8,795 nucleotides of DNA, taken from IMG/VR virus record IMGVR_UViG_2526164665_000039. The stretch is one strand, 5' to 3'. The translations under genes and the position numbers were made by a program. The notes under the pieces were generated by a model, which was not told where the DNA came from, did no database searches, and worked only from the letters and a program-made list of their open reading frames with translations. The stretch's first letter is position 1; each line of letters begins with the position of its first letter. Source of the DNA: a virus (Duplodnaviria; Heunggongvirae; Uroviricota; Caudoviricetes). Shown one piece after another: positions 389 to 1,347 of the stretch.

Positions 389-1126
389 TCACTCACTCTC
401 TTTTAAACCAGTTTTAACTGTTTGTGGTTTTGGGTAAGGCTGGACTTTGAATAGCTTTGTGTTGAGGCGTTTTCTGGCCCTCTTGTTCAGAAACCGGATG
501 TAACGAAACTGACGGAATTTATGAACACTGGCTCTGTCGATATTAGCCCTCAGATGTTCACCTCGCTGTCCGCCTCGTTTAATGGCATTCCTGCAAATCT
601 CGTGATACCACTCGCCATCAAGTTCATAGAATGTTGATTCGTGGCTGCCTACATAATCAAAATTGCTTGCCTGATACACGACACCAAGACAGCCACAACG
701 CTCATCTGCAAACGACTGAACCCACTGTACCTGCGGATAAAGCTGCCTGATTAGCTTGAGCGCGTAACTGATTGCCCTTGATTCGGAGTTTCTCGGCATA
801 CAGTCATGCAGCCATAACCGGTTAAGCTCCATATATTCACGGTTCCGCGTGCCCGTTACGACGCGTGCACCACTGTTTGGATTAAGGGCATAGCCCCATT
901 GCATTACGCCAACCAGCTCCCGTTCTGAAAATATGCCCAGATGAAGGTAGGAGTTATTTACGAAACGGTGGCTGTAATGTTTATTGACGATGACCAGTCT
1001 GGCCAGCCAGCAACTTATTGTCTCAACCCGCAACTCACGGGAGCCATAACCAACGATATTGTCGTTATAGCGAATAAGTTCAGGCGTGCTGATGATACGG
1101 GATGTGACTTGCTTTCTGTTCCCCAC
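389..1126 (-). CDS. mom: Mom-like DNA modification protein (adenine N6 hypermodification), Mu-type
   Basis: 245-codon ORF immediately downstream of, and overlapping by 47 nt, a Com-like zinc-finger ORF, next to a Gin-family invertase as in phage Mu. The only in-frame start upstream is GTG at 1126, preceded by AAGGA. Identity rests on synteny; I cannot verify Mom residues from memory. Confidence 0.55.
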
Positions 1127-1280
1127 GACAGGATTTCCTTGTGTATGTGGGGTGCTCTGTGGCGCTCGGAGATGTGATTTGATTGAGGGTTTTACAGCGC
1201 GGACATTTTACTTCCAGATAACTGAAACTGGCCCGTGCCAGTAGCTTATTGCAGTGTCGGCACCGTATGTTTCGATACAT
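1080..1280 (-). CDS. com: Com-like zinc-finger translational activator of mom
   Basis: 66-aa product [14 protein letters not shown]...[11 protein letters not shown] with a CxxC-(17)-CxxC zinc-finger; the IRCxxCNKLL and CPRCK blocks resemble Mu Com as I recall it. ATG at 1280 follows AGGAGG with a 10-nt spacer (the ORF track's 1325 start is TTG). Overlaps the mom start. Confidence 0.6.
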
Positions 1281-1325
1281 GGCCGCATAACCTCCTGCTT
1301 TGTTGTTGATGCCTTTCTCATGCAA

Positions 1326-1347
1326 TCGATCGACAAAAACGATCGAT
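1326..1347. promoter_or_regulatory. Tandem Dam (GATC) sites upstream of com-mom, candidate methylation-sensitive control region
   Basis: TCGATCGA and CGATCGAT palindromes with GATC at 1328-1331 and 1341-1344, about 50-65 bp upstream of the com ATG on the minus strand. In Mu, mom transcription depends on Dam methylation of upstream GATC sites. No clear -35/-10 was identified. Confidence 0.3.

Follow-up and report, generated by a model that had tools for sequence, protein, structure and literature searches.

A com-mom anti-restriction module close to that of phage Mu at the right end of a Mu-like Escherichia coli prophage

Two overlapping minus-strand genes at positions 389-1280 of a Caudoviricetes DNA of 8,795 nucleotides (the whole stretch analysed here, referred to as the window) raise the question of whether they form a DNA modification module of the phage Mu com-mom type, and of how closely the elements that control them follow those of Mu. 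A preliminary description, made without database searches, had proposed a Com-like zinc-finger gene overlapping a 245-codon ORF in the Mu mom arrangement, and this proposal is borne out, with both ORFs present and overlapping in this way. In a Mu-like E. coli prophage of the O157 type, the pair forms an ordinary anti-restriction module at the right end; the module is intact and near that of phage Mu, with an upstream control region that is somewhat different. It belongs to the Mu com-mom family, is known and annotated, and is very probably functional; both genes have already been named by RefSeq, and the Mom homologs of the prophage Sp18 are already in the literature. The genes and the adjacent prophage end are located as follows.

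389-1126, minus strand: mom, encoding a predicted 245-aa Mom-family adenine-modifying enzyme from a GUG start codon (GTG in the DNA)
1080-1280, minus strand: com, encoding a predicted 66-aa CCCC zinc-ribbon translational activator from an ATG; its final 47 nt overlap mom
1291-1296, minus strand: com Shine-Dalgarno sequence AGGAGG, read from the sequence, 10 nt ahead of the ATG and invariant in three E. coli variants
261-388, no strand assigned: prophage right end (attR-type), placed by the start of homology and by direct repeats D1 and D2, with three TTTGATAC repeats

Many O157:H7 strains are among the at least 161 complete E. coli genomes that share this right end, with 97.5-99.9% identity over 257-2600, and the RefSeq records of these genomes label the two genes as 'Mom family adenine methylcarbamoylation protein' and 'Com family'. 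Strain 2010C-3347 is 100% identical to the window across 261-2495, and its whole Mu-like prophage of 39 kb is complete, containing transposase A and B, Gam, a single Mor-family activator with accession WP_000852377, and lysis, head, and tail genes. Homology to other E. coli strains begins at 255-261 and the flanks differ from strain to strain; therefore, the prophage ends at 261, and positions 1-260 are host DNA. The window shows no essential difference from the Sp18-type prophages of E. coli O157:H7 and other STEC, from which it departs in its insertion site (the host flank 1-260) and in four 1-nt deletions in an esterase gene. Sp18 has been reported to carry homologs of Mom and of its regulators (PMC3299994); it is predicted to be intact in the literature, and its host-range genes are noted there to differ from those of Mu. 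The right end of the prophage reads 5'-TATAGCGCGGCG (261-345), with the terminal dinucleotide TA compared with TG/CA in Mu, and the left end in the 43-kb prophage locus L027 reads ...GGTTACA. The TTTGATAC repeats, at 278-285, 300-307, and 335-342, resemble transposase-binding sites.

The similarity to Mu Com and Mom on which the preliminary description had staked its assignment is evident for both products. The 245-aa product matches the Pfam Mom profile PF25680 over profile positions 1-202 of 202 (258.7 bits, 4.5e-77; cut-off 27.1) and PHROG 1384 (9.5e-84), and shares 80% identity with Mu Mom (tblastn) and 78% with D108 Mom; no Mom model was matched in NCBIfam. A GNAT-like fold had also been anticipated, and the closest solved structure is PDB 8bv8, 'Methylcarbamoylase mom', the GNAT-fold crystal structure of Mu Mom, which aligns without gaps over residues 5-233 (E=1.3e-124). 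The Mu Mom residues Y28, W48, H58, Y59, R111, S124, D149, R151, Y159, and W181 are all conserved (10/10), and mutagenesis of Mu Mom has shown that most of these ten residues are essential or important, with Y28A having no significant effect (PMC13219725). The literature numbering, which refers to a 241-aa Mom, begins at an in-frame upstream AUG that is found in Mu and absent from the window mom, so that window residue numbers are lower by 8 than those in the literature. The HTH-like Mom-specific insertion (approximately residues 175-209), a segment needed for activity in this enzyme with a GNAT core (PMC13219725), is also kept, with 28 of 35 residues identical and no gap in the 8bv8 alignment. 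Compared with Mu Mom, the window protein has a 2-aa insertion at the N-terminus and a 12-aa extension at the C-terminus. Comparison of the window mom with that of JMF1, an E. coli variant with 93% identity, gives 25 synonymous differences and 7 nonsynonymous ones (dN/dS 0.07), which indicates that purifying selection on mom is strong. The product of Mom named in the preliminary description, N6-carbamoylmethyl adenine, stands, and the origin of the group has since been added to it: Mom moves glycine from Gly-tRNA(Gly) onto adenine N6, and the adduct rearranges to N6-carbamoylmethyl-dA (PMC13219725).

The smaller product matches the Pfam zinc ribbon profile Zn_ribbon_Com PF10122 (46.8 bits, 2e-12; cut-off 22.9) and the PHROGs entries 'gpCom control of modification' and 'translational regulator' (approximately 5e-13). 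Its zinc-binding residues Cys7, Cys10, Cys26, and Cys29 align with the cysteines of Mu Com, while its C-terminal tail is unrelated in sequence to that of Mu Com. An identical 201-nt coding sequence is annotated by RefSeq; read from an upstream TTG, the ORF would be 81 aa long. The RefSeq name 'Com family DNA-binding transcriptional regulator', and nothing else, suggests that Com is a DNA-binding transcription factor instead of acting on RNA, and such a role is most improbable, as Mu-type Com has been shown to bind mom mRNA and to activate its translation (PMC6483171; PMC3378877), and the cognate RNA motif lies exactly at the expected place in the window. The two RNA elements ahead of mom are as follows.

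1151-1167, minus strand: predicted Com-binding RNA motif GAGCGCCACAGAGCACC, a match to the bipartite motif defined by SELEX
1121-1152, minus strand: translation-inhibition hairpin of the ViennaRNA minimum free energy (MFE) structure, in which CCCCAC (1152-1147) pairs with GUGGGG (1126-1121)

The Com RNA motif defined by SELEX is GAGNNCC(N)2-3GAGNNCC (PMC6483171), and GAGCGCCACAGAGCACC is its sole match on both strands of the window and of the 43-kb locus L027, with 0.02 matches expected per shuffled window. The motif (1167-1151) is located directly 5' of the mom start hairpin, as it is in Mu, and the short CC(N)2-3GAG hairpin that Com is predicted to bind, beside the inhibitory one, would as read from the sequence have a 4-bp stem with one C-A mismatch in the Mu-like register. 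In the MFE structure, the mom GUG (1126-1124) is buried in the 3' arm of the start hairpin and an AAGGA Shine-Dalgarno sequence resides in the loop. The Mu counterpart, CCCACGG/UUGUGGG, occupies the same place, the mom GUG is buried in a hairpin in both phages, and the com/mom overlap is 47 nt in the window and 50 nt in Mu. Among 12 com-bearing loci from other genera, each folded separately by MFE, the pairing involves the start codon in 8 and the Shine-Dalgarno sequence in 4, with differing stem sequences. The MFE z-scores of the 106-nt folds are not significant (-0.97 and -0.02), so the hairpin rests on position and conservation, not on thermodynamic excess. RNAalifold returned no consensus structure for ten sequences of the Com-site and hairpin region, in which loops of variable length were misaligned by MAFFT, and a scan of the window against Rfam gave zero family matches. 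As judged from its elements, the com-mom translational switch is intact.

The same switch precedes other modification genes in E. coli. The Com motif is identical, and identically positioned, in the JMF1, AST198, and M19 cassettes. In AST198, a sister Mu-like prophage (L029, 4634-5840) carries com, the Com motif, and the hairpin ahead of a Dcm-type C5 methyltransferase gene that stands where mom would be, and its homology to the window stops at the GUG, which marks the swap junction. A P2-like prophage of E. coli M19 (L030, 2988-3921) carries a similar com cassette ahead of another DNA methyltransferase. Both cassettes share with the window the same Com, the GAGNNCC(N3)GAGNNCC motif, and the CCCCAC/GUGGGG start-codon hairpin. 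Pairs of com with a methyltransferase have already been described in other Mu-like phages (PMC3299994), and the cassettes in the literature are those of B3, FluMu, and Pnm1; the swap of mom for dcm at the GUG amounts to a modular exchange behind a conserved Com switch.

The completeness of these elements bears on whether com-mom might be a decaying, non-functional remnant of a domesticated prophage. The neighbouring esterase ORF is broken by the four 1-nt deletions, the adjacent plus-strand ORF is flagged as frameshifted by RefSeq, and the right-end terminal dinucleotide is TA, not the CA of Mu. Against such decay, however, the com and mom ORFs are full length with all catalytic and zinc-binding residues kept, the RNA switch is intact, and the dN/dS of mom is 0.07; moreover, the entire 39-kb prophage is complete in the strain that is identical over 261-2495, and Sp18 is predicted to be intact, making a decayed module very unlikely.

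Transcriptional control is where the window and Mu diverge, and the preliminary description had drawn attention to a cluster of Dam sites upstream of com. The elements of this region are as follows.

1281-1418, minus strand: conserved com-mom control block, which is the divergent intergenic region shared with the plus-strand ORF at 1395-1802, delimited by comparison of variants
1324-1348, no strand assigned: GATC dyad AATCGATCG-N7-CGATCGATT, a perfect 9-bp inverted repeat with Dam sites 13 bp apart
1306-1336, minus strand: candidate weak core promoter, inferred from position, with -35 TTGTCG (1336-1331), a 19-nt spacer, and -10 CATCAA (1311-1306)
1329-1396, no strand assigned: stretch resembling the OxyR consensus in overlapping registers (crude count, 13-14 of 20 positions)
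1395-1802, plus strand: ORF of 135 aa, divergent from com, with a full-length match to phrog_26524 (E=6e-95)

The window as a whole contains fewer GATC sites than expected, with 15 observed compared with 31.6 expected and at least 15 in each of 200 shuffles, and 7 of the 15 lie within 1328-1749 (1328-1331, 1341-1344, 1452-1455, and 1463-1466, and also at 1498, 1672, and 1746). A scan statistic under uniform placement gives P=0.0003 for seven sites in 430 nt and P=0.0025 for five in 180 nt, and the cluster is real. The four Dam-site positions given at the outset are exact, and the proximal pair does lie upstream of com, but the pair at 1452-1466 belongs to the unrelated ORF 1395-1802, within which the GATCs at 1452-1501 fall. 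The control block is shared with AST198 to approximately 1408-1418 and with JMF1 to approximately 1388, with complete divergence beyond; the segment containing the 1452-1466 sites is missing from both variants, which retain the com-proximal block, so these sites lie outside the com-mom control region. The dyad at 1324-1348 is unchanged in the window, JMF1, and AST198, though the flanking bases differ. Of the clustered GATCs, only the 1328-1344 pair belongs to the conserved com-mom control block, in which it appears homologous to the Dam/OxyR element of Mu.

The cluster could instead serve the divergent ORF 1395-1802, or be a general Dam/OxyR-type phase-variation element of the cargo that is not specific to mom, given that five of the seven clustered sites are inside or beside that ORF and that the 114-bp divergent intergenic region around the proximal pair is flanked by a 23-nt inverted repeat. 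Such an assignment is improbable, as JMF1 and AST198 lack the ORF yet keep the proximal dyad, and not the distal sites, together with com, and as the proximal dyad has the form of the Mu mom dyad. The 23-nt repeat is imperfect (78% complementary) and comprises 1294-1316 and 1382-1404, on the two sides of the com/ORF135 intergenic region; within it, AAAG(G/T)CATCAACAA...CAGG reads outward to each gene, and this is kept in AST198.

Taking the proximal pair as part of com-mom control, its geometry can be set against that of Mu. GATC sites 2 and 3 of Mu form a like dyad, AATCGATC-N9-GATCGATT, so that the two phages share the dyad form AATCGATC-N-GATCGATT as well as the 13-bp spacing. A triple GATC with 18+13 bp spacing is found in Mu and in five other enterobacterial loci (L005, L006, L017, L018, and L019), and the last GATC lies 76-83 nt before the com ATG in Mu, L005, L006, L017, and L019 (78 nt in Mu itself). 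In contrast, the window has two GATCs, ending 51 nt before com, and a third site like that of Mu is missing. The distance from dyad to com is approximately 27-29 nt shorter in the window than in Mu and the five relatives, and a prophage locus of Edwardsiella, L003, has a short GATC arrangement like that of the window. Two alignments of the control region account for these distances. One equates the window pair with Mu sites 2 and 3 and places a deletion of approximately 27 nt downstream; the other, which uses Edwardsiella L003 as a bridge, leaves the total length unchanged and implies decay of the upstream GATCs. In this internally repetitive region, the first alignment is favoured by the dyad form that the window shares with Mu, while the bridged alignment retains a Mu-like length and makes the apparent deletion uncertain.

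The textbook consensus used for scoring OxyR sites is ATAGnTnnnAnCTAT-N7-ATAGnTnnnAnCTAT. Of the matches listed across the whole window, the best five all fall within 1329-1396 and agree at 13-14 of the 20 specified positions by a crude count, by which the experimentally defined OxyR site of Mu scores 13 of 20. OxyR binding at 1329-1396 is weakly supported by this consensus count.

The spacer of Mu Pmom is 19 bp. The candidate promoter at 1306-1336 was placed by analogy with Mu Pmom, and its proposed -35 hexamer at 1336-1331 would put the GATC dyad on the -35 region; the candidate -10 CATCAA reads TATCAA in JMF1 and AST198. A scan of the com strand over 1281-1420 for consensus sigma-70 promoters found no site of at least 9/12. 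Mu Pmom is likewise a poor, activator-dependent promoter, with poor hexamers and suboptimal spacing (PMC3378877). Within the prophage, an exact motif is common to three promoters, upstream of a Mor-family gene, a lysozyme gene, and a protease gene, at the following positions of locus L027.

20742-20755, minus strand: CCSCAAANCCNGCC motif upstream of the protease gene
28669-28682, minus strand: CCSCAAANCCNGCC motif upstream of the lysozyme gene
29168-29181, minus strand: CCSCAAANCCNGCC motif upstream of the Mor-family gene

In each case, CACTT is found 9-10 nt upstream, and CCSCAAANCCNGCC is a candidate binding site of the single Mor/C-type activator of the prophage. Upstream of com, the motif is absent from the com strand even when three mismatches are allowed.

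The approximately 27-29 nt by which the gap between dyad and com falls short of that in Mu and its five relatives are roughly the size of the C-binding site of Mu, and the coding module may be intact and yet severed from the late programme of the phage through loss of the C-type site, with two Dam sites left, so that it is silent or under purely host-dependent Dam/OxyR control in place of the Mu late-gene cascade. The missing CCSCAAANCCNGCC motif upstream of com, the lack of a good promoter found there, and the sharing of the short arrangement by Edwardsiella L003 all point in this direction. This possibility is considered the less likely one, because mom is under strong purifying selection and the control block is kept in diverged variants; in addition, activator sites may be too degenerate to be detected with a motif drawn from three sites, and the alignment bridged by L003 leaves the deletion itself uncertain. 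Similarly tentative is a fuller proposal, in which the promoter would have lost its late-activator site, the dyad would lie on the -35 region with host methylation alone gating transcription, and com, the Com motif, and the GUG hairpin would constitute a portable translational switch. Such a switch, if it exists, recombines at the GUG, and its partners in E. coli prophages are Mom, a Dcm-type C5 methyltransferase, and the methyltransferase of a P2-like phage.

The preferred reading, considered highly likely on the evidence of the sequence, takes the window module for the right-end com-mom operon of a Mu-like (Sp18-type) transposable E. coli prophage, working in the manner of its Mu relative. 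During late lytic growth, a single mRNA would be transcribed from a weak promoter within the 1281-1418 block, and Com would be translated first from its strong AGGAGG Shine-Dalgarno sequence. The zinc ribbon of Com would then bind the GAGNNCC(N3)GAGNNCC hairpin at 1151-1167 and open the adjacent hairpin, freeing the mom GUG for translation, a step taken from Mu biochemistry and for which all required sequence elements are present. Mom is expected to be a dimeric GNAT-fold enzyme with an HTH-like insertion that transfers glycine from Gly-tRNA(Gly) to adenine N6 in double-stranded phage DNA, after which rearrangement to N6-carbamoylmethyl-dA would block many restriction enzymes; this activity is predicted from the 80% identity and the full conservation of essential residues. 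Least certain among these steps, Dam methylation of the dyad at 1324-1348 probably gates transcription and would block OxyR binding, in a setting that differs from Mu in that the dyad abuts the presumed -35 region, with two GATCs and no detectable Mor/C-type activator site. At this locus, we infer activity, modification, and regulation alike.

Like the com-mom of Mu and D108, that of the window occupies the rightmost end of a transposable phage. No late-activator site is detectable between its GATCs and core promoter, unlike in Mu, and the departures from Mu appear to be confined to transcriptional control (two shifted Dam sites and no visible activator site) and to an insertion of cargo. These findings leave the current understanding of com-mom intact, and their practical value is modest. 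This widespread STEC prophage probably packages DNA with carbamoylmethylated adenines, which would alter restriction sensitivity, transduction between strains, and modification signals in nanopore or SMRT sequencing. For Mu Pmom, which has been studied intensively, the variant control region, in which two Dam sites abut the presumed core promoter and no activator site is visible, provides a natural point of comparison.

The separation of the module from the invertase by about 3 kb of cargo, which the preliminary description had taken to be foreign to Mu, is borne out: the invertase lies 3,355 nt from the com start in the window, whereas only 95 nt separate the gin stop from the com ATG in Mu. 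This interval of approximately 3.4 kb is lambdoid cargo of the Stx-phage type, foreign to the Mu layout, and places a divergent ORF upstream of com. Read along the minus strand, it contains a SASA/DUF6645 esterase gene, a DUF1378 gene, and a DUF826 gene, followed by the plus-strand ORF 1395-1802. The esterase gene shares 77-81% nucleotide identity with the nanS-p/yjhS genes of Stx phages. This NanS-p/YjhS-like gene (approximately 2501-4540, minus strand) is split into ORFs of 567 aa and 118 aa, and it carries four single-base deletions (2496, 2564, 2911, and 2919) compared with strain 2010C-3347, in which it is one 679-aa gene; the split points to a pseudogene or, alternatively, to a homopolymer error in the assembly. 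In JMF1 and AST198, other small genes occupy the slot between the DUF826 gene and com, and RefSeq flags the locus of ORF 1395-1802 as frameshifted. Inside this ORF, 1550-1579 forms a perfect 12-bp inverted repeat, AGGTCCAGATAG-N6-CTATCTGGACCT, which on the minus strand is terminator-like with a weak T run, approximately 270 nt upstream of com. A possible remnant of the gin 3' end at 1477-1497 (LPSLYKK, with an 11-nt exact match to Mu) was rejected as not significant (tblastn E=37, blastn E=0.6). Beyond the cargo lies the upstream part of the right end.

8765-7219, minus strand: baseplate genes
7273-6308, minus strand: tail-fibre gene
5701-6273, plus strand: tail-fibre assembly gene, on the strand opposite to the tail-fibre gene
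5196-4636, minus strand: Gin-type invertase, with 75% identity to Mu Gin

The segments 5210-5425 and 6555-6752, which flank the tail-fibre assembly gene, encode similar peptides, such as ISCVPSKATPLI and ISCVPSKGTPLI, in opposite orientations, consistent with an invertible tail-fibre region resembling the G segment beside the invertase.
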